From assembly GCA_963709345.1 (NCBI GenBank), contig CAVPVX010000007.1, positions 220,881 through 252,880 of the forward strand: 32,000 nt of DNA, read 5' to 3'. Numbering within the stretch: the stretch's first letter is position 1; every line of letters begins with the position of its first letter. Both the position numbers and the translations under genes were made by a program. The DNA is from an uncultured Actinomycetes bacterium (GTDB taxonomy: Bacteria > Actinomycetota > Thermoleophilia > UBA2241). The notes beneath the pieces were generated by a model, which was not told the origin of the DNA, ran no database searches, and saw only the letters and a list, made by a program, of their open reading frames with translations. Shown piece by piece: positions 9,692 to 32,000 of the stretch.

Positions 9692-10210
9692 GTGAGCATC
9701 GACTACGTCCTGCAGCAGCTCGGCGCCACCGAGGATATCCGCTACACCGAGCGCCACCACTGGGTCTTCTTCGTCGCCGAGATGATCCGCTGGATCCTGT
9801 TCGCGGTGGTCGTGCTCGCCCTCATCATCATGCTGCGGGTCTGGTGGCTTCCGGACGCCGGCTGGGTGTGGTGGCTGCTGCTGCTCTTCCTCGTGCCGGC
9901 CGGACGCATCGCCTGGGGATTCCTGTCGTGGCGCATGAACGTCTACGTGCTCACCAACCGGCGCGTGATCGAGTCGACGGGAGTGCTGAGCAAGCGCGTC
10001 TCCGACTCGTCACTCGAGAAGCTCACCGACATCGTCCTCAAGCAGTCGATCCTCGGCCGCATGCTGGGCTACGGGGACATCGTCGTCCTCACGGCGGCGG
10101 CCGGCGCAGGCGTCAACCACCTCAAGCAGATCCGTAAGCCCATGGAGTTCAAGACCCAGATGCTCGACGCCAAGGAAGAACTCGAGCGCGAAGTCGGCCG
10201 CAGCGACTGA
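9692..10210 (+). CDS. Membrane protein with bacterial PH domain (bPH_2, YdbS/YdbT-like)
   Basis: GTG at 9692 is preceded by AAGGAGG (9681-9687). Two TM helices are followed by YVLTNRRVIESTGVLSKRVSDSSLEKLTDIVLKQSILGRMLGYGDIVV, the bPH_2 signature. The upstream part of the track ORF (9050..) is antisense to the neighbouring gene. Confidence 0.8.
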   Translation: MSIDYVLQQLGATEDIRYTERHHWVFFVAEMIRWILFAVVVLALIIMLRVWWLPDAGWVWWLLLLFLVPAGRIAWGFLSWRMNVYVLTNRRVIESTGVLSKRVSDSSLEKLTDIVLKQSILGRMLGYGDIVVLTAAAGAGVNHLKQIRKPMEFKTQMLDAKEELEREVGRSD

Positions 10211-10834: not shown

Positions 10835-10862
10835 TTGACCGCAGTCCCTGCCGCCGTATGAT
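10835..10862 (+). promoter_or_regulatory. Sigma-70-type promoter for arsM (TTGACC - 16 nt - TATGAT)
   Basis: TTGACC at 10835-10840 and TATGAT at 10857-10862, about 40 nt upstream of the arsM ATG, within an AT-enriched divergent intergenic region. Confidence 0.5.
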
Positions 10863-10902
10863 AGTAACGAAACAAGTTGATTTGACGAAGCGAGAGGACG
10901 AC

Positions 10903-11754
10903 ATGAGCGAACGACCGGCCGAGGGCCTCAAGGATCAGATCCGCAACCACTACGCGGAGCGCGCCGTCGCGGCTGCGCAGCCACAGCCGTGCGGGTGCGG
11001 CTGCAGCTGCGGCCCCGCCGCCGTCGAGCCGCGGGAGGATATCGCGCGGGGACTCTACGCGATCGACGAGACCAGCGCGCTGCCGGCCGAGGCGGTCCTC
11101 GCCAGCCTCGGCTGTGGCAACCCGACGTCGCTCGCCGACCTGCAGCCCGGCGACGTCGTCCTCGACCTCGGCAGCGGCGGCGGCATCGACGTGTTGCTCT
11201 CGGCCCGGCGCGTCGGCCCCACCGGCAAGGCCTACGGGCTCGACATGACCGACGAGATGCTCGCGTTGGCTCGTGAGAACCGGCGCAAGGCCGGCGTGGA
11301 CAACGTCGAGTTCCTCAGGGGCGACATCGAGAACATCCCGCTCCCCGATGCTTCGGTCGACGTCATCATCAGCAACTGCGTCATCAACCTCTCGCTCGAC
11401 AAAGACCGGGTGTTGGCCGAAGCCTTTCGGGTTCTCAAGCCCGGCGGGCGCTTCGCGGTCAGCGACATCCTCTTCCAGGGCGACGTAGGCAGGATCCCAC
11501 AGAGTCTGCTCGACGATACGGAAGCGTGGGCCGGATGTGTCGCCGGCGCGCTCGAGGAAGAGGACTTCCTGGCGCGCCTCGGCACGGCGGGGTTCGTCGA
11601 CGCCGGCGTCGAGGTCACCGCCATCTACGACGGCTCACCTGACAACAGCGTCTGCGGCGCGCCGGCGCTCCCGGACGGCGTCCGGCTGATCAGCGGCTTC
11701 GTGCGCGCCGTGAAGCCGAGCGCCGGCGGCTGCTGCGGCGGCTGCTGCTGCTGA
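10903..11754 (+). CDS. arsM: Arsenite S-adenosylmethionine methyltransferase
   Basis: SAM-binding [12 protein letters not shown], ArsM-typical LGCGNP and SNCVINL motifs, and Cys-rich N-terminal (CGCGCSCG) and C-terminal (CCGGCCC) segments. ATG at 10903 follows GAGAGGA. Confidence 0.9.
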
Positions 11755-11796
11755 AGCGGCGCGCGACACCCGGCCACACGCAATCGGACGTCCACC

Positions 11797-12996
11797 TCAG
11801 AGAACGAGGTTGAACAGCAGGCCGACGAACATGATGCCGACCCCGACGACGCCCAGGAACGTGGCGATGAGCGGCCACTTCAGAACCTTGCGCAGGATGA
11901 TCGTCTCGGGCAGCGAGAGCGCGATGACCGCCATCATGAAGGCCAGGACGGTGCCCAGAGCGGCGCCTTTCTCGAGCAGCGCCTGGACGATCGGGATGAT
12001 GCCCGCGGCGTTGGAGTACATGGGGATGCCGAAAAGGACCGCCGCCGGCACGCTCCACCAGGCGTCGGCTCCCATGATCCCGGCCATGAAGTTCTCAGGC
12101 ACGTAGCCGTGGATGACGGCGCCGACGGCGATGCCGGCGAGCACGTACGGCCACACCTTGCCGACGATGTCCTTCACCGACTGCCATGCGTAGGCAATGC
12201 GCCCCGACCAGTCGAGCTCCTCGCCGTCCTCGGCATCGCCCATGCGGATCTCGCGCACCCAATCCTCAACGTAGCGATCCATCTTGAGCCGGCCGATGAT
12301 CCAGCCCGCAACGATTGCGATGAGCAGGCCCGTGACGAGATACAGGCCGGCCACCTCCCAGCCGAACAGGCCGTAGAGCAGCACCAGCGCGACCTCGTTG
12401 ACCATCGGCGCGGCGATCAGGAATGAGAAGGTGACGCCCAGCGGGATGCCCGCCTCGACGAAGCCGATGAACAACGGCACGGCGGAGCAACTGCAGAACG
12501 GGGTCACCGTACCGAGGCCCGCGGCCATCACGTTCCCCGTGGTCTCCCGACGGCCGTGGAGCAGGGCGCGGGTCCGCTGCGGGCTGAAGAACGTGCGCAC
12601 GATCCCGACGCCGAAGACGACGATGGTCAGCAGCATCAGCACCTTGACGGTGTCGTAGATGAAGAACTCGAGCGAAGACCCGAAGCGACCGTCGCCCAGA
12701 TCGAGGAGGCCCTGCGTGAGCCACGTGGCGATCGGCAGCCAGTAGTGGTACGAGACCGCCCACGCGCCGACGCCGAGCACGACCCTCGTCCACAGCGGGA
12801 GACGCAGCCAGAGACGCACGAGCACCTTGTGCGGCGCGCGGCTGGGCGGCGCGCCGGGAGCCGGGGATGGAGTGGCCTCCGGCTCCGCGACGAAGGCGGC
12901 CGGCGGGGTGCCGCACTCACACATGGGCACGACGCGCTGCGCCTCCGGGTCCTCCTCGGCCGCGGAAGGCACAGCGTCGATCGTCTGCCGGGTCAT
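11797..12996 (-). CDS. arsP: ArsP-like permease (predicted permease family, formerly DUF318/UPF0718) with TPFCSCS vicinal-cysteine motif
   Basis: Polytopic membrane protein with GTVTPFCSCSAVPLFIGF, the C-x-C motif described for the organoarsenical efflux permease ArsP. The RBS lies inside the 3' end of the upstream phosphoesterase gene (7-nt gap), so the two form an operon. Confidence 0.7.
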   Translation of the reverse strand: MTRQTIDAVPSAAEEDPEAQRVVPMCECGTPPAAFVAEPEATPSPAPGAPPSRAPHKVLVRLWLRLPLWTRVVLGVGAWAVSYHYWLPIATWLTQGLLDLGDGRFGSSLEFFIYDTVKVLMLLTIVVFGVGIVRTFFSPQRTRALLHGRRETTGNVMAAGLGTVTPFCSCSAVPLFIGFVEAGIPLGVTFSFLIAAPMVNEVALVLLYGLFGWEVAGLYLVTGLLIAIVAGWIIGRLKMDRYVEDWVREIRMGDAEDGEELDWSGRIAYAWQSVKDIVGKVWPYVLAGIAVGAVIHGYVPENFMAGIMGADAWWSVPAAVLFGIPMYSNAAGIIPIVQALLEKGAALGTVLAFMMAVIALSLPETIILRKVLKWPLIATFLGVVGVGIMFVGLLFNLVL

Positions 12997-13003
12997 GAGC
13001 GAT

Positions 13004-13753
13004 TCATCCTTCCCGAGCGTCCGCCGGCGCGGCGAAGCTGGTGATCAGTGGTGTCTGCGCAAGCCCGTCCAGGAGACGATCGTAGTCGTAGGGGACGCGC
13101 ACGAACTCGACGAGGCCCTCACCTGCGCCGAGCCCGGCCGGATCGACGATCGCGTAGCACGCCCGCCAGTCGCCATCCTTGGGCCGCCCCCCGCTCCCCA
13201 CGTTCACGAACGTCGTGTCGCCGACTCGCCGCGCGTAGGGCAGGTGCGTGTGTCCGAAGAGGATGGCCGGATACGGGTACTCGCGCGCCATGCGCTCCAT
13301 CGCCGAAGCGGGTCTGTCCTCGAACAGGTACTCGTTGATGCGTCGCGGGCTGCCGTGCACGGCGAGGATGTCACCGCCGGGCGTGACAAGCGTGAAGTGA
13401 TCGTCGAGCGTGCGCAGATATGACTTGACCTCGTCGGACACGGCCGTCTGGGTCCAGGCGAGCGACGCGGCGCCCTCGGCGCGCTGCTCGTCGGTCTTGT
13501 AGACGCAGCCGCAGTCGCCGGTCTCGAAGCCGATGCCTTGGTCGTAGTTGCCCATGAGGCTGGGTATGCCGCGGTCGCGCACGAGCAGAGCGACCTCGTT
13601 CGGCCAGGGCCCGTAGCCGACCAGGTCGCCGAGAGAGAGCGCCAGACCCAGGTGGCGGGCCTCGACGTCCGCCAGGATCGCCTCGAGGCCCGGCAGATTG
13701 CCGTGCACGTCGGCGAACACCGCAAACGGCTCGGCGGTCCGGATGGTCTTCAC
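13004..13753 (-). CDS. Metallophosphoesterase (calcineurin-like, YfcE/MJ0936-type)
   Basis: Motifs FADVHGN, GDLVGYG, GNYD, FGHTH. I chose the GTG at 13753 (VKTIRTAEPFAV...) because GGGAGGAG lies 7 nt upstream; the track ATG at 13804 has no RBS. Confidence 0.8.
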   Translation of the reverse strand: MKTIRTAEPFAVFADVHGNLPGLEAILADVEARHLGLALSLGDLVGYGPWPNEVALLVRDRGIPSLMGNYDQGIGFETGDCGCVYKTDEQRAEGAASLAWTQTAVSDEVKSYLRTLDDHFTLVTPGGDILAVHGSPRRINEYLFEDRPASAMERMAREYPYPAILFGHTHLPYARRVGDTTFVNVGSGGRPKDGDWRACYAIVDPAGLGAGEGLVEFVRVPYDYDRLLDGLAQTPLITSFAAPADAREG

Positions 13754-13812
13754 GCGGTGGCTCCTCCCTGAGGTTCTGGTCACGGGCGACGGCATGTCAT
13801 ACAATTTATATC

Positions 13813-13849
13813 AACGTATCTTGACCATAAACGATTGTCAATGTACGGT
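13813..13849. promoter_or_regulatory. Interlocked divergent promoters and probable ArsR operator between the phosphoesterase/arsP operon and the acr3 operon
   Basis: Plus strand: TTGACC (13821-13826), 17 nt, TACGGT (13844-13849). Minus strand: TTGACA (13841-13836), 17 nt, TACGTT (13818-13813). The two -35 boxes form the inverted repeat TTGAC-N11-GTCAA. The site is embedded in an AT-rich patch at 13793-13847. Confidence 0.45.
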
Positions 13850-13890
13850 GCGCCACGTCAGCCCACGCCGGCGCCAAGGAGACGACCTCG

Positions 13891-15006
13891 ATGCCCCGGA
13901 GCACTATCAAGCGACTCTCGTTCCTCGACCGGTACCTCACCGGCTGGATCTTCCTCGCCATGGCCGTGGGCGTGTTCCTCGGCTGGGCCTTCACCGGTGT
14001 GCCCGACTTCATCAACCAGTTCAACGTCGGCACGACGAACATCCCCATCGCCATCGGGCTCATCGTGATGATGTATCCGCCACTCGCCAAGGTGAAGTAC
14101 GAGGAGCTCGGCGACGTCTTCCGCGACTACAGGATCCTGGGCCTCTCTCTGGTGCAGAACTGGCTCATCGGCCCGTTCCTGATGTTCTTCCTCGCCATCA
14201 TCTTCCTGAGCGACTACCCCGAGTACATGGTAGGGCTCATCATGATCGGCCTGGCGCGCTGCATCGCCATGGTCATCGTCTGGAACCAGCTCGCCAGGGG
14301 CGACGCCGAGTACGCCGCCGGGCTGGTCGCCTTCAACAGCGTCTTCCAGGTGCTCTTCTACAGCCTCTTCGCCTGGATCTTCGTCACCAAGCTGCCGCCG
14401 CTCTTCGGCCTCGAGGGCGTCGCCGTCGACATCACCATCGGCCAGATCGCCGAGAGCGTCGCCATCTACCTCGGCATCCCGTTCGTCGCCGGGATGATCA
14501 GCCGGTATGTCGGCATCAAGACGAAGGGTCGTGAGTGGTACGAGCAGAAGTTCATCCCGCGCATCAGCCCGCTCACACTCATCGCCCTGCTGTTCACCAT
14601 CCTCGTCATGTTCAGCCTCAAGGGCGACCTCATCGTGGAGCTGCCTCTCGACGTCGTGCGCATCGCCGTGCCGCTGCTCATCTACTTCGTCGTCATGTTC
14701 TTCGTGAGCTTCTTCATGGGCCGCAAGATCGGCGCCGACTACTCCAAGACCGCGACCCTGTCCTTCACCGCCGCCAGCAACAACTTCGAGCTGGCGATCG
14801 CCGTGAGCGTGGCCGTGTTCGGGATCGGCTCGGGCGTCGCCTTCGCCGCGGTCATCGGGCCGCTCGTGGAAGTCCCAGTCCTGATCGGCCTCGTCAACGT
14901 GTCCCTGTGGCTGGGACGCAAGTACTGGGGCGTGACCGACGAACCCGTGCCGGAGGCCGTGGCCGCCGGCGTCGACGAGGTCGCCTGCGACCCCCGGAGG
15001 AGCTGA
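13891..15006 (+). CDS. acr3: Arsenite efflux transporter, ACR3 family
   Basis: [20 protein letters not shown]...[21 protein letters not shown]...LIGPFLMF... is a full-length ACR3 signature. AAGGAG lies 9 nt upstream of the ATG. Confidence 0.92.
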
Positions 15007-28313: not shown

Positions 28314-29165
28314 ATGCCCGCACCCCCCTCGGTAAGCCGCTCCGCCCCCACCCCCAGTCGCTCACGCCTCCGCCGCCTGCAGGTCCGCATCCTCGGCTGG
28401 TACGCCGAGAACGCCCGCGACCTCCCGTGGCGCCACACCACGGATCCGTACGCGATCCTCGTGAGCGAGGTCATGCTCCAGCAGACGCAGGTGGCGCGCG
28501 TCGTGCCGCGCTTCGAGGAGTGGATGGCCGCCTGGCCGGATCTCGAGGCACTCGCGGCGGCGTCGCTCGCCGACGTCCTGCGACGCTGGCAGGGGCTCGG
28601 CTACAACAACCGGGCGGCCCGCCTGCAGGCTTGCGCCGTTGCGGCAGTCGCCCGTTGTGCGCCGGAGCGGACCGCGGAGCTGCCGCGCTCTCCGGCCGGG
28701 CTCATGGACCTCCCCGGCGTCGGCCCCTACACGGCCCGGGCGGTGCTGGTCTTCGCCCACAACGACGATCTCGCGGCGGTCGACGCCAACGTGCGGCGCG
28801 TACTGACACACGAGCTCGGTCTTCGACCCGACCTGGGCGACGGCGAACTGCAGACGGTCGCCGAGGCGGCGCTCCCGCGGGGTCGCAGCCGCGAGTGGCA
28901 CAACGCCCTCATGGACTACGGCGCTCTGGTCCTGACGGCCCGCGCCACAGGCATCTCACCGCGCACGCGCCAGAGCGCGTTCGAGGGATCCCGGCGTCAG
29001 AAACGCGCCCTGCTCCTGCGCGCTCTGCTGTCACGGAGCCCACTGACACCGGCCGAGCTGGCTGACGAACTCGCACTGCCCGCGGAGGACGTCGACGATC
29101 TGATTCGACTGCTCCAGCGTGACGGGCTCGTGAGCGTGGATTCGGGCAAGGTCTCCGTGGCGTGA
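28314..29165 (+). CDS. HhH-GPD DNA glycosylase of MutY/Nth type lacking the 4Fe-4S Cys cluster, with a C-terminal winged-helix-like tail
   Basis: YAILVSEVMLQQTQV (catalytic Glu context), LPGVGPYTARAV (HhH-GPD) and VDANVRRVL (catalytic Asp context). The protein has only two Cys residues and no CX6CX2CX5C motif. The tail is PLTPAELADELALPAEDVDDLIRLLQRDGLVSV. Confidence 0.75.
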   Translation: MPAPPSVSRSAPTPSRSRLRRLQVRILGWYAENARDLPWRHTTDPYAILVSEVMLQQTQVARVVPRFEEWMAAWPDLEALAAASLADVLRRWQGLGYNNRAARLQACAVAAVARCAPERTAELPRSPAGLMDLPGVGPYTARAVLVFAHNDDLAAVDANVRRVLTHELGLRPDLGDGELQTVAEAALPRGRSREWHNALMDYGALVLTARATGISPRTRQSAFEGSRRQKRALLLRALLSRSPLTPAELADELALPAEDVDDLIRLLQRDGLVSVDSGKVSVA

Positions 29166-29507
29166 GCGTGCCGGCCGCCGAGTAGTCTGGGCTCACGCCA
29201 CACCGCCTCGGGAGGCACAGACGACGGCTCGGTGCCCGACTCCGTCGGCGAAGCGTACGGCGAGTGGCTGCCGCTGCACCACGCTCTGGAGGCGGTCCGT
29301 CGAAGGCCTCGCGACGACATGGCCGGCGACTGGGCGGCCGCTCGCGAGGCCGCCGACGCGCTGGGGTGCACGCCAGCGGGCCCGGTGACCGGAGTCCACG
29401 AGCTCAGCCGCACGGACGGGGCCCCGCCGACTACGTCACCCGCATCCGTCTGCCGTACGCTCGCTGAGAGCAGGGCGGGCGGGCCGCGCAGCCGCCCCGC
29501 GCGCGCC

Positions 29508-29827
29508 TCACGTGCGGAACATCGTCAGCAGGAAGACGAGCTCTCCCTGCGCCTTCACGGCGTGGCGCAAATCGGCCGGCATGTAGTACAGCTTGCCGGC
29601 GCTCGCCTCGTGCGCCGTGCCGTCGAGCACGACTTCCCCTGCCCGCCGAGCACGTGTATGACGGCAGGAACGCTGGCCGTGTGCTCGCTCAGCTCCTGGC
29701 CCTGAGCCAGCGTGAAGTGGACGATCTTGTGATGCGCGTTCTCGACGATCGCCTTGCTCACGATCCCGCGATCGGCGACCTCGACCATGCCGTCGAGATC
29801 GACGACCAGCGGTTCGGCAGTCTCCAT
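29508..29827 (-). pseudogene. Cupin_2 domain protein, reading frame broken once at a C4/G4 run
   Basis: N-terminus (ORF 29555..29827): METAEPLVVDLDGM...FTLAQGQELSEHTASVPAVIHVLGGQG. C-terminus (frame of ORF 29508..29963): GEVVLDGTAHEASAGKLYYMPADLRHAVKAQGELVFLLTMFRT. One extra G at CAGGGG (plus-strand CCCC 29636-29639) would restore VLGGQGEVVLDG. Confidence 0.6.
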
Positions 29828-29939
29828 GTTCGACCTCCGTCGGTGTTTGCCGTCTTACAACCGACGGTACCCCGGAGCCACCGCTCCTCATCTTGACTTT
29901 CGTCAGGCCCGCTTCTCGTGCGCGCCACGTGAGTTCAGT

Positions 29940-29968
29940 TTGACACCGCCGGGCCTTGGTCATATAGT
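29940..29968 (+). promoter_or_regulatory. Near-consensus sigma-70 promoter (TTGACA - 17 nt - TATAGT) for the small-ORF pair
   Basis: TTGACA at 29940-29945 and TATAGT at 29963-29968, about 50 nt upstream of the ATG at 30020. Flanked by two copies of CACGTGAG (29926-29933 and 30002-30009). Confidence 0.6.
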
Positions 29969-30019
29969 TTGTGAGGCGTTACACAATATCGAGAAATTAG
30001 ACACGTGAGGAGGGTCGCC

Positions 30020-30169
30020 ATGACTGATCGGATCTCCAGGCTTAAGCGCTTCTTCGAGGGCACGGCCAGCGTCGTGGCCTCCCCCATGGGCGACGCCAGG
30101 AGTCACCTGCGCGGCAAGGACTTCATGAGGATCGACCTTACCGGGAGCGCGCGCTCCTACAGGGTCTGA
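30020..30169 (+). CDS. Small protein, 49 aa (not in ORF track): MTDRISRLKRFFEGTASVVASPMGDARSHLRGKDFMRIDLTGSARSYRV
   Basis: The ATG is preceded by GAGGAGGG with a 5-nt spacer. Paralogous to the next ORF (shared R-FFEGT-xxV-xxx-P-x-GDAR-x-H-[LI]-R core). GC3-rich codons. Sits between a dedicated promoter and terminator. Confidence 0.6.
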   Translation: MTDRISRLKRFFEGTASVVASPMGDARSHLRGKDFMRIDLTGSARSYRV

Positions 30170-30189
30170 ACAGAGAGGCGGTGGGCACC

Positions 30190-30327
30190 ATGCAGCATCG
30201 AATCTTTCGCTCCATCGGCCGTTTCTTCGAGGGTACCGGCGGAGTTCTCGGGACCCCCTCGGGCGACGCCCGCGGCCACATCCGTGTCACCGTCAAGACC
30301 GTGCACGACGGCGACTCGTCAGCCTGA
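30190..30327 (+). CDS. Small protein, 45 aa (not in ORF track): MQHRIFRSIGRFFEGTGGVLGTPSGDARGHIRVTVKTVHDGDSSA
   Basis: Starts 20 nt after the ORF1 stop, with AGAGAGG/GGTGGG upstream. The conserved core is shared with ORF1 at the amino-acid level while the nucleotides diverge, which argues for selection on the protein. Confidence 0.6.
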   Translation: MQHRIFRSIGRFFEGTGGVLGTPSGDARGHIRVTVKTVHDGDSSA

Positions 30328-30410
30328 TTCATGGGAAGCTGACCCAGCCCGCCAAACTACAACACCCCCCTCCCGACAGCGGCCCCCCCAGCCGCGACCG
30401 GTGAGTCAAA

Positions 30411-30481
30411 GGGCCTCTCGCCCCCTGGTTCCGGCCCCCCATACGGCCAGGGATACGGCGAGGGGCCCTTCCCCTTTTCTC
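30411..30481 (+). terminator. Intrinsic terminator after the small-ORF pair (possibly bidirectional)
   Basis: Outer stem GGGCCTCTCGCC (30411-30422) pairs with GGCGAGGGGCCC (30457-30468), 12 bp with one G-U. Inner stems are CCCTGG/CCAGGG and CCG/CGG. It is followed by CTTCCCCTTTTCTC. Confidence 0.65.
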
Positions 30482-30564
30482 AGTGCGACCACCACGGCCG
30501 ACAGCGACGCCCGAAAGAGGTGCGGTCGGCGTGCAACGCCGCCCGGACCCGCGTCGCCCTCGGC

Positions 30565-31929
30565 TCAGACCGGGAAGCAGGCGGGGTAGCGGCGCGGCTT
30601 CTTCTTGCGCCGCTGGTACGTGCGCGCGAGCTCGATGAAGATCCCGACGTCGCGCTCCAGGTCGCCCTGCGTACCGTCGAAGTAGAACGTGCGGATCGGC
30701 ATATCGTCGAGGTCCTTCTGCAGACTCGGGTACACCGCCTCCGTCACGATGCCGTTCATGCAAGTGAAGGGGCTGATGTCGATGATGCCGTCGGCGCCCT
30801 TCTGGTACAGGTAGATGGCCTTCCCGCTGCTCAGCACCATCTCGCCCAGGGCGCCCGTGTACGGCAGATAGGGATAGCTCATCTGCAGGACATCGCGCAC
30901 GTCCACGGGCTCCTCGTACCCCACGAAGTCGTCGTGGAACGGTCCGTACAACGCATGCTCGTCGCGGCGCATGATCTTGTTCTTGAGGACTCGGACGAGG
31001 CTGTCCTTGCTGATGCGCCGGCCTTCGTCGATGAGCCGGCGACGCTGCTCGTCATCGGTGTACCAGACCCACTCCCCGATGTCCGACAGCCAGCACTCGC
31101 CGCCCTGCTCCTCGACGACGCGGATGAGGTCGAAGTTCGAGAAGGTGTTCTGGCGGCAGAAGATCTCGCCGACCACGCCGACCAGGGGGCGCGAAGCGTC
31201 GTAGTCGGCGGGCAACTGGCGGAAGCGGTCGCGGGCGCGCACCATGGCCGGCACGATGGCCTCCAGGCGCTGCCTGTGCGACACGCCGTTCAGGCTGACC
31301 GCCTCGCCCACCTCTTCGAGGCTGAGCGTGTAGGCGGCGTCCGCGGCACCCTTCTTGCGCTCGTAGGGCCGGGTCTTGAGCAGGAGCTTCATGAGGATGT
31401 CCTGGCACAGCACCGCCCGCCAGGCAGTGCGCACGAGATCCTGTGAATAGTTGCCGATCGACGAGTACCCGTCGCCCGACGTGATGCTGATCACCGGGAC
31501 GTCGCTGTAGCCGAGCTCGTCGAACTTGCTGCGGATGAGGTGCAGGTACTGGCCGAAGCGGCACGGCCCGTTGGCCGACGGCATCAGGAAGGCGACGTTG
31601 TCGCGGCCTTCGTCCTCGATGATGCGCAGGAAGTCGCCGAGCGTGATCTTCTGCGGGTAGCACTCGTCGCCGGAGGTCACCCGACTGCCGAGCTCCAGCG
31701 TGCGCTCGTCCGAGTCGCTGGTCGGCCAGCAGTCGAAGCCGATGGATCTGATCGCCGCGGCCAGCAGGTAGGAGCCGCCGTACGGCATCTGCGGCAGGTA
31801 GAGCGTCCGGCCCTCGAGACCGTACGCGGCGATCGCCTGCTTGATGCCTTCATCCTGGACGGCCGCGCCGGCCGACGCGACGGCGTCTCCCGCGGCGGCT
31901 CCGCCCTGGGGACTAGGTGGCGACGACAC
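30565..31929 (-). CDS. Acyl-CoA dehydratase activase-related protein (DUF2229-type, CoA-enzyme-activase uncharacterised domain)
   Basis: LYLPQMPYGGSYLLAAAIRSIGFDCWP...GDECYPQKITLGDFL...GPCRFGQY...SPFTCMNG motifs are typical of this family. I prefer the GTG at 31929 (GAGGAGG 6 nt upstream) over the track start at 31944. It overlaps the upstream gene end by 17 nt. Confidence 0.65.
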   Translation of the reverse strand: MSSPPSPQGGAAAGDAVASAGAAVQDEGIKQAIAAYGLEGRTLYLPQMPYGGSYLLAAAIRSIGFDCWPTSDSDERTLELGSRVTSGDECYPQKITLGDFLRIIEDEGRDNVAFLMPSANGPCRFGQYLHLIRSKFDELGYSDVPVISITSGDGYSSIGNYSQDLVRTAWRAVLCQDILMKLLLKTRPYERKKGAADAAYTLSLEEVGEAVSLNGVSHRQRLEAIVPAMVRARDRFRQLPADYDASRPLVGVVGEIFCRQNTFSNFDLIRVVEEQGGECWLSDIGEWVWYTDDEQRRRLIDEGRRISKDSLVRVLKNKIMRRDEHALYGPFHDDFVGYEEPVDVRDVLQMSYPYLPYTGALGEMVLSSGKAIYLYQKGADGIIDISPFTCMNGIVTEAVYPSLQKDLDDMPIRTFYFDGTQGDLERDVGIFIELARTYQRRKKKPRRYPACFPV

Positions 31930-32000
31930 CGGCCACCTCCTCACGGCACTCGCGCGCCTCGTCGGCCGCGTCCTGGGACCACCAGCGCAGGAAGCCCTTG
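31913..32000 (-). CDS. 3' end of an upstream gene (partial, runs off the window), probably the partner ATPase/activase subunit
   Basis: The in-frame reading ...KGFLRWWSQDAADEARECREEVAGVVAT* ends at TAG (31913-31915). GC3-rich. Function is inferred only from operon context. Confidence 0.4.
   Translation of the reverse strand, partial: KGFLRWWSQDAADEARECREEVAGVVAT

Follow-up and report, generated by a model that had tools for sequence, protein, structure and literature searches.

AzuC, a 28-residue protein of Escherichia coli encoded by the dual-function AzuCR RNA, is repressed by CRP, is associated with the membrane and has GlpD as its partner; its mRNA doubles as a regulatory RNA. Operators of the CRP/FNR family read TGTGA-N6-TCACA, and the HcpR-type variant of the site is TTGTGA-N6-TCACAA. 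LacI-type operators also carry the half-sites TTGTG...CACAA, at a spacing 1-2 bp shorter. These are among the closest described systems to the locus considered here, an operon of two paralogous genes for proteins of 49 and 45 residues in a 32-kb stretch of contig CAVPVX010000007.1, from an uncultured bacterium of the Thermoleophilia. The whole 32-kb stretch is called the window, and coordinates are window positions unless a related locus is named; related loci or contigs carry L-numbers (L001 etc.). The two open reading frames (ORFs) are real genes of an unnamed family, and they are under purifying selection. Together with the conserved control elements around them they may form a signal-gated pair of small binding proteins, repressed at the transcription start.

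The upstream gene, ORF1 or the A-type paralogue, occupies 30020-30169 on the forward strand; its 49-residue product has an N-terminal helix followed by FFEGT, GDAR.H and KDFM..DLTGSAR. The downstream gene, ORF2 or the B-type paralogue (30190-30327, same strand), encodes 45 residues of the pattern MQxRxFRSIGRFFEGTGxVxxTPSGDARGH... and is shortened by a nonsense change. The two products share 18 identities over 32 positions (56%, BLASTP E 2e-11). ORF1 has the ribosome-binding site GAGGAGGG (30007-30014, forward strand), and ORF2 has a ribosome-binding region, GAGAGG / GGTGGG (30173-30185, forward strand), inside the 20-nt gap between the genes, in which a scan found neither promoter nor terminator. 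In relatives an equivalent GGAGGGGTGAGCACC-ATG stands ahead of the second gene. The GTG at 30005 listed by the ORF tool overlaps the ribosome-binding site, and the start conserved in relatives is the ATG at 30020. Tryptic peptides expected from the operon proteins include FFEGTGSVLSTPSGDAR and FFEGTASVVASPMGDAR.

At 30325-30327 the ORF2 of the window stops with TGA where the nearest relative, L005, reads CGA (Arg), and the ancestral stop lies 15 nt further on, at 30340-30342. The window copy therefore lacks the conserved RF/WxGR at the C-terminus; the cause is either a nonsense mutation or an error of assembly.

A first-pass annotation, made from the letters alone, had described two paralogous small-protein ORFs with their own ribosome-binding sites in a self-contained two-gene operon. 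All of these elements are where it placed them, and the operon is borne out by its layout in relatives: of 40 units headed by the operator, 33 contain a pair of family ORFs separated by 8-22 nt, and 6 contain a single one. The annotation's observation has thus been confirmed; its interpretation is supported in part. It also called the operon unannotated, which is correct for the ORF track on which it relied. Both exact proteins are already held, nameless, in public protein collections, where named relatives are 'hypothetical protein', so that the label reflects only the size cutoff of that track.

Selection at the protein level, proposed earlier from the sequence, is clear. In the core of ORF2-type genes the pairwise divergence averages 0.22, 0.12 and 0.50 at the first, second and third codon positions, and the median ratio of nonsynonymous to synonymous substitution rates (dN/dS) is 0.19 over 599 orthologue pairs. 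The ORF1 type evolves faster, with a dN/dS of ~0.45 across orthologues; between ORF1 and its orthologue in L005, the closest relative, the proportions of synonymous and nonsynonymous sites that differ are 0.29 and 0.04. A search for conserved homologues and codon bias had been suggested as the deciding check, and its outcome favours coding genes.

A profile built from the two ORFs retrieves 170 homologue clusters of 44-72 residues, none of which has a Pfam domain. In a survey with one genome per species (185,579 species), 41 species-level genomes carry the family; nearly all are metagenome-assembled genomes (MAGs) of uncultured Thermoleophilia, from wetlands, lake sediments, permafrost and anaerobic digesters. 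One carrier contig, L017 (JADGRD010000585.1), belongs to a MAG labelled 'Proteobacteria bacterium', yet has the operon, 3' element and neighbours of the Thermoleophilia type and is probably a binning contaminant. An exhaustive HMMER profile search of 1.84 billion representatives yielded 36 proteins, ~25 of them genuine small members; it gave no remote relatives, and the few large multi-stretch matches look like low complexity. For either ORF, hmmscan finds no Pfam or NCBIfam family at E ≤ 10; no match in a PDB profile search has an E below 0.25; PADLOC has 0 matches at E ≤ 10 for four family members; and PHROGs has 0 matches, which together with flanks of chromosomal housekeeping genes speaks against a phage-derived origin. 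Nothing relevant was found in the literature on the motifs or on small proteins of Thermoleophilia. At first pass no family had been recognised either: the family is new to every library queried, while a regulated small-protein operon as such is of a familiar kind.

The A and B genes are paralogous over their whole length. The B gene is the more conserved of the two, with the core MQxRxFRSIGRFFEGTGxVxxTPSGDARGH and a C-terminus in one of two forms, VPIDTMxDVSGSxRWxGR or VYxxxTVTRGRNF. In the sub-lineage of the window the A gene retains IKRFFEGT...GDARGH...KDFMxxDLTGSARFYxR; in other sub-lineages FFEGT and GDARGH have been lost and IKR...GRDFMLDDLTxGA is retained. Full-length members share a second motif, D(F/T)M..D(L/V)(T/S)GS.R(F/W).GR. 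In L013 a single gene (2251-2388) joins an A-type N-terminus (MRVRFLPTLKRFFEGTASVVA) to a B-type C-terminus (RVYTQETVTRGRNF), a hybrid that suggests deletion by recombination between the paralogues.

Both genes lie behind a sigma-70-type promoter, TTGACA-17-TATAGT at 29940-29968 on the forward strand, which matches the consensus at 11 of 12 positions. It had been noticed at first pass, and a scan of 29000-31000 shows it to be the sole such site there, where shuffled sequence would be expected to give 0.2. When the 150 nt 5' of the first gene are aligned for 36 loci, invariant islands (the promoter, TTTGTG-N8-CACAA, a T-rich stretch and GAAGGAGGGTCGCC-ATG) stand amid DNA rich in substitutions and indels. 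Within the promoter GTTTGACA-N16-ATAyAsT is invariant, and spacer and flanks vary. A tandem duplication of the -35 region (CGTTTGACAGGTTTGACAC or CAATTGACACGTTTGACAG), with two TTGACA ~10 nt apart, occurs in L018, L019, L033, L036 (about 9740-9760), L001, L021 and L026.

Abutting the -10 box is a candidate palindromic operator, TTGTGAGGCGTTACACAA (TTGTG-N8-CACAA, 29969-29986). It is the single match to this pattern in the window and occurs essentially once per related locus of ~20 kb. Counted over 45 such fetched loci, the 18-bp palindrome is exact in 42, as it is in the window; wherever a related locus extends over the region, it has the core TGTG-N8-CACA. Half-sites and spacing are exactly those of CRP-type sites, and L031 and L002 have a perfect TGTGA-N6-TCACA; most copies read TGTGC...ACACA, unlike the CRP/FNR operator, and the site has no linked regulator gene. 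Because TTGTG...CACAA occurs in LacI-type operators as well, the CRP/FNR assignment is putative. Since the palindrome abuts the -10 box, it covers the expected transcription start, with its left half-site at or upstream of that start, and would occupy what in CRP/FNR systems is the classical repressing position.

Downstream of the palindrome runs an A/U-rich, unstructured leader (29987-30019, forward strand) that contains GAGGAGGG. Between palindrome and start codon lie 44-61 nt (median 49). Conserved RNA structure, such as a thermometer or an element masking the ribosome-binding site, is absent from the leader (the RNAalifold consensus is -0.47 kcal/mol), so the palindrome is conserved at the DNA level. 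This conserved element had been overlooked at first pass in favour of the boxes CACGTGAG, proposed as a dedicated regulator site. The boxes are indeed present at 29926 and 30002, among 5 copies in the window against 1.75 expected, but neither position is conserved in the 36 loci; only L005, 92% identical, shares the copy beside the ribosome-binding site. A further CRP-like site, seen in L011 (3036-3051, TGTGACGTGGGGCACA) and L028 (4038-4053, TGTGACGGCGGGCACA), lies some 6-7 kb away from the operon and ~75 nt 5' of a conserved gene start. In ~800 kb of related loci no additional site of this kind occurs besides this one, which could mark a further member of the regulon.

The message ends in a 3' untranslated region (3'UTR) of 118 nt (30364-30481, forward strand) that is conserved in sequence and structure. 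An unpaired C-rich single strand with CCUCC leads into hairpin 1 (30379-30395, loop CCCCCCA); after a conserved linker comes hairpin 2, the terminator (30409-30470), whose apical loop UUCCGGCCCC is conserved; all three are on the forward strand. The second hairpin has a folding energy of -46.6 kcal/mol (z = -3.0) and is G+C-rich, as an intrinsic terminator should be. The tail after it is CCCCTTTTCTC, and a consensus scan with a threshold of ≥ 5 T in 8 made no terminator call on account of this weak U-tract; actinobacterial terminators are often without long U-tracts. The strong terminal hairpin of the first-pass annotation is thus borne out, by the fold energy and by covariation. In an alignment of 35 sequences the paired cells amount to 94.9%, and compensatory changes are seen in 18 of the 26 pairs (14 of 19 in hairpin 2); 0 of 500 shuffles match these values, and pairing in slid controls is ≤ 54%. 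The 118 nt are conserved across loci more than the C-termini of the proteins, and the unpaired segments (CCUCC, the C-run loop and UUCCGGCCCC) are nearly invariant.

Outside a short N-terminal segment the proteins themselves are predicted to be largely disordered. AlphaFold2, run with family alignments, places a helix at residues 3-19 of ORF1 and 2-13 of a B-type member (pLDDT, the predicted local distance difference test score, ~79). This helix of ~13-19 residues ends in FFEG(T)G and is cationic and strongly amphipathic; the remainder, modelled at low confidence, carries the nearly invariant TPSGDARGH. The hydrophobic moment of the helix is 0.70-0.72, which 0 of 500 shuffles reach, with a mean hydrophobicity of 0.35-0.39 and a net positive charge. 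Identical calculations give 0.65 for the membrane-targeting sequence (MTS) of FtsA, 0.69 for AzuC and 0.64 for SpoVM. The helix therefore has the cationic, high-moment character of membrane-targeting small proteins (AzuC, SpoVM, MinD/FtsA MTS-like), a likeness of functional class and not of homology. AzuC offers a parallel: it, too, is small and cationic, and its function resides in an amphipathic helix. There is no sequence similarity between AzuC and the present proteins, however; AzuC is the product of a single gene in another phylum, whereas the present locus encodes two paralogues with a long conserved motif in a disordered tail, and any control by CRP-type regulators or binding to a target would here be conjectural.

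The explanation that we favour, with about even confidence, is that the operon, confined to one clade of uncultured, probably anaerobic, Thermoleophilia, encodes two small binding proteins whose expression is gated by a signal through repression at the start site. The near-consensus, housekeeping-type promoter would be constitutively strong and would drive both genes as one transcript. A dimeric regulator, of CRP/FNR type to judge by half-site and spacing, would sit on the start-site palindrome and block transcription until released by a signal. With an unstructured leader and strong ribosome-binding sites, translation would then be fast and high, and the two-hairpin 3'UTR would end the message and probably stabilise it. 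Being too small and too disordered for enzymes, the proteins most likely work by binding. The amphipathic helix might attach to a partner protein or to the surface of the membrane, with the TPSGDARGH motif of the tail contacting the target, and the faster-evolving A may have diverged into a partner or modulator of the conserved B.

Several points weigh against this explanation. The ORF2 of the window has lost five conserved C-terminal residues. The overall confidence of the AlphaFold2 models is low (pLDDT 54 and 62 in two runs), too low to base a fold search on, and an amphipathic helix alone does not discriminate between a membrane and a protein partner. No gene for a CRP/FNR-family regulator is found in the window (Pfam, 20 ORFs) or in the annotated flanks of relatives. 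The palindrome could serve another family of dimeric regulators, for example the LacI type, or could be conserved partly as the initial transcribed sequence. The carriers are also fairly close relatives, so that conservation could in part reflect inheritance, although the variable segments interleaved with the promoter and operator argue against mere inheritance as its cause.

The 3'UTR might do more than end the message. In one alternative, which would add to the favoured explanation and not replace it, the transcript is a dual-function RNA: besides coding, its C-rich 3'UTR would regulate in trans, after processing, by pairing with G-rich ribosome-binding sites, or in cis at the operon's own. 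The conservation beyond the protein C-termini and the compensatory changes described above fit such a role, as do the near-invariant unpaired segments (CCUCC, the UCCCCC loop and the UUCCGGCCCC loop), CCUCC being complementary to GGAGG. A covariance model of the element, R1, gives one match per locus, on the forward strand only and directly 3' of the B gene, at 65-123 bits against ≤ 37 in reverse. The same model detects no free-standing copy in 1.2 Mb. The element recalls 6C RNA (RF01066) and other C-rich-loop RNAs of Gram-positive bacteria in its two hairpins, its C-rich loops and single strands and its high-G+C actinobacterial genome. It differs from 6C RNA in being the 3'UTR of a coding operon that never stands alone, and it has no Rfam match to that family: in the window no family reaches its gathering score, and at E ≤ 10 the segment 29900-30560 gives two unrelated families at chance level only. 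C-richness is in itself unremarkable at 69% G+C, and selection would equally maintain the structure of a bidirectional terminator placed between convergent operons. At the least, the 3'UTR would be a selected terminator and stabiliser common to the convergent operons; a regulatory role of its C-rich unpaired parts is possible, and a full dual function seems to us rather unlikely.

Ribosomally synthesized and post-translationally modified peptides (RiPPs) were one of the options left open at first pass, and tandem paralogous genes of 45-50 codons with a conserved N-terminus and three C-terminal flavours are what precursors of the leader-plus-core type might look like. The lasso-peptide grammar can even be read in the alignment, where T15 (Thr at -2), S17 (start of the core) and D25 (Asp at core position 9) are invariant or nearly so, though a pattern this short could be chance. 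Against such a reading, the annotated loci have no lasso cyclase, leader peptidase, RiPP recognition element, radical S-adenosylmethionine (SAM), YcaO or LanM-type gene and no exporter within 8-10 kb, and the housekeeping neighbours are unchanged in the 38 loci compared. The would-be core is the most conserved part of the protein and, at 29-33 residues, unusually long; there are no Cys residues; and inheritance is strictly vertical at a single locus, unlike that of biosynthetic clusters. We regard modified-peptide precursors as improbable.

Equally improbable is a toxin-antitoxin-like module or a leaderless two-peptide bacteriocin. The comparison is with enterocins L50A and L50B, likewise tandem paralogous, cationic, amphipathic peptides of ~44-50 residues without a signal peptide, and the strong promoter and putatively tight repression of the present genes would suit a toxic product. 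The annotated flanks have no maturation, immunity, transporter or toxin-domain genes, and neither PADLOC nor Pfam gives a match. The adjacent ATP-binding cassette (ABC) protein is of the ABC-F/EttA type (NF000355): its only Pfam matches are ABC_tran and ABC_tran_Xtn, and a transporter-permease domain is not among them. The enterocins differ further in that the present locus is chromosomal, conserved and fixed by vertical descent across 41 species; six genomes retain one gene only. A helix is predicted for just the first 13-19 residues, the N-terminal third, and there is no hydrophobic membrane-spanning segment. Neither the toxin-antitoxin option nor that of modified peptides, both raised at first pass, has been upheld.

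A faint resemblance to CsbD-type stress proteins had also been noted. CsbD (PF05532) or another known general-stress protein, diverged past recognition, would be similarly small and hydrophilic, with a Gly/Asp-containing motif (G-x-V...GD) and a likely stress- or signal-gated promoter. The PF05532 profile is unmatched at any threshold tried, as are all of Pfam and NCBIfam at E ≤ 10, so CsbD membership is rejected. None of the 36 proteins from the 1.84-billion profile search links to another family, the PDB search is as empty as stated above, and neither the amphipathic N-terminal helix nor TPSGDARGH is a CsbD feature; descent from any such protein is very improbable. That the ORFs are not genes at all, and that the conserved thing is a non-coding RNA or promoter region, might be argued from the frequency of chance small ORFs in high-G+C DNA and from the high conservation of the untranslated regions, but is effectively refuted by the codon-position divergence and dN/dS given above, by conserved start codons and ribosome-binding sites, and by frames kept across the 170 clusters down to ~40% identity.

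The control region is not restricted to the A/B pair. A scan of public metagenome contigs for the exact promoter-plus-operator pattern gave 110 matches. In 92 cases a member of the A/B family follows; 3 matches end at the contig edge and ~6 look unrelated. Another 8 are followed by a 40-residue ORF, MFDRTITAIGTVFSGVSSVVLGTSEVSGE... (type D), and 1 by a 52-residue ORF, MNTRLGRMIDRLFFGG... (type C). This outcome indicates that promoter, operator and leader travel with small ORFs of this kind.

Type C is found in L002 (8521-8679) directly 3' of the A/B operon, with a promoter, TTTGTG-N8-CACAA operator, leader and strong terminator of its own (L002 8440-8790). A third ORF of this type also follows the pair in L003, L008 and L090; the window does not have it. 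Type D occurs in L081, L092, L097 (10235-10420), L109, L125, L132, L140 and L145, in another genomic context with an identical promoter, operator and leader. Its neighbours, judged by eye from translated ends, are the end of a carbamate-kinase- or ornithine-carbamoyltransferase-like gene upstream and a convergent amino-acid ABC ATPase. The D family comprises only 10 protein clusters. Both types share the N-terminal register of the family, and hhalign support for homology is weak (C, E 3.5e-4 and probability 37%; D, E 0.004 and probability 8.5%), so that the connection relies instead on the common promoter, operator and leader together with that register. A self-contained cassette that duplicates as a unit may have spawned a superfamily of small proteins (A/B, C and D) under one dedicated regulator, with a regulatory C-rich 3'UTR on the A/B message; we put this forward as a speculation whose chances are distinctly below even. 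If true, the cassette superfamily and the 3'UTR RNA would constitute a previously unseen small-protein/RNA regulon.

The surroundings of the operon are constant. In nearly all of the 38 loci the order is an ABC-F gene (EttA/Uup-like), a MutY-like HhH-GPD glycosylase, a cupin on the opposite strand, A, B, a convergent gene for a 459-residue protein and an activase-type gene. The neighbour proteins are 75-97% identical between loci, which marks a tight clade and makes the shared gene order uninformative on function; the locus is inherited vertically. Called genes with Pfam matches within 8 kb on either side, in L001-L003 and the window, are hemerythrin, ABC-F, peptidase M28, HhH-GPD, cupin, BcrAD_BadFG/DUF2229 and Amidase_2.

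The divergent cupin and the convergent 459-residue gene agree with the neighbours reported at first pass, the acyl-CoA-dehydratase-activase protein being the operon partner of the latter gene in relatives. The cupin gene of the window (29508-29827, reverse strand) is frame-split, with an N-terminal part at 29555-29827 and a C-terminal part, with the Cupin_2 match, at 29511-29699. In relatives it is intact, at 106 residues (L002 7498-7818), so the window copy has a frameshift, which reflects either a pseudogene or a homopolymer error of long reads. In the intergenic region between the cupin and the operon lies a further palindrome, TTGACTTTCGTCAG (29893-29906; TTGAC-N4-GTCAg, FNR/HcpR-like), which conforms to TTGACyTTsGTCAG and reads TTGACCTTCGTCAG or TTGACCTTGGTCAG in most of the 36 aligned loci. 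Its distance is fixed on the cupin side and varies, through indels, towards the -35 box. It is therefore probably part of the cupin promoter, and it may be an activator site.

The 459-residue protein (30565-31944, reverse strand) has no Pfam or NCBIfam match. In relatives its gene is followed by one for a 1036-residue activase-type protein with BcrAD_BadFG and DUF2229 domains (TIGR00241), and the two together could form an anaerobic plasmalogen synthase of the PlsR/PlsA kind. Further away, 10858-15006 may be an arsenic-detoxification cluster. It consists of a SAM methyltransferase (10858-11754) whose C-terminus is rich in Cys, an ArsP_1 permease (11797-12996, reverse strand), a metallophosphoesterase (13004-13804, reverse strand) and an SBF/ACR3-type transporter (13891-15006).

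No part of bacterial genomes is charted as poorly as their small proteins, and the Thermoleophilia, an abundant group in soils and sediments, are almost uncultured. A family that has no library relative, is clearly under purifying selection and comes with an unusually complete conserved control unit is a tractable entry point. The operator sequence can be used to fish for the regulator and its signal, metagenomes can be searched directly for the regulon with the promoter-plus-operator pattern, and a candidate new structured RNA is provided by the 3'UTR. If the two proteins are indeed signal-gated modulators of a membrane or of a partner protein, they would be an actinobacterial counterpart to the few cases characterised in E. 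coli and Bacillus.

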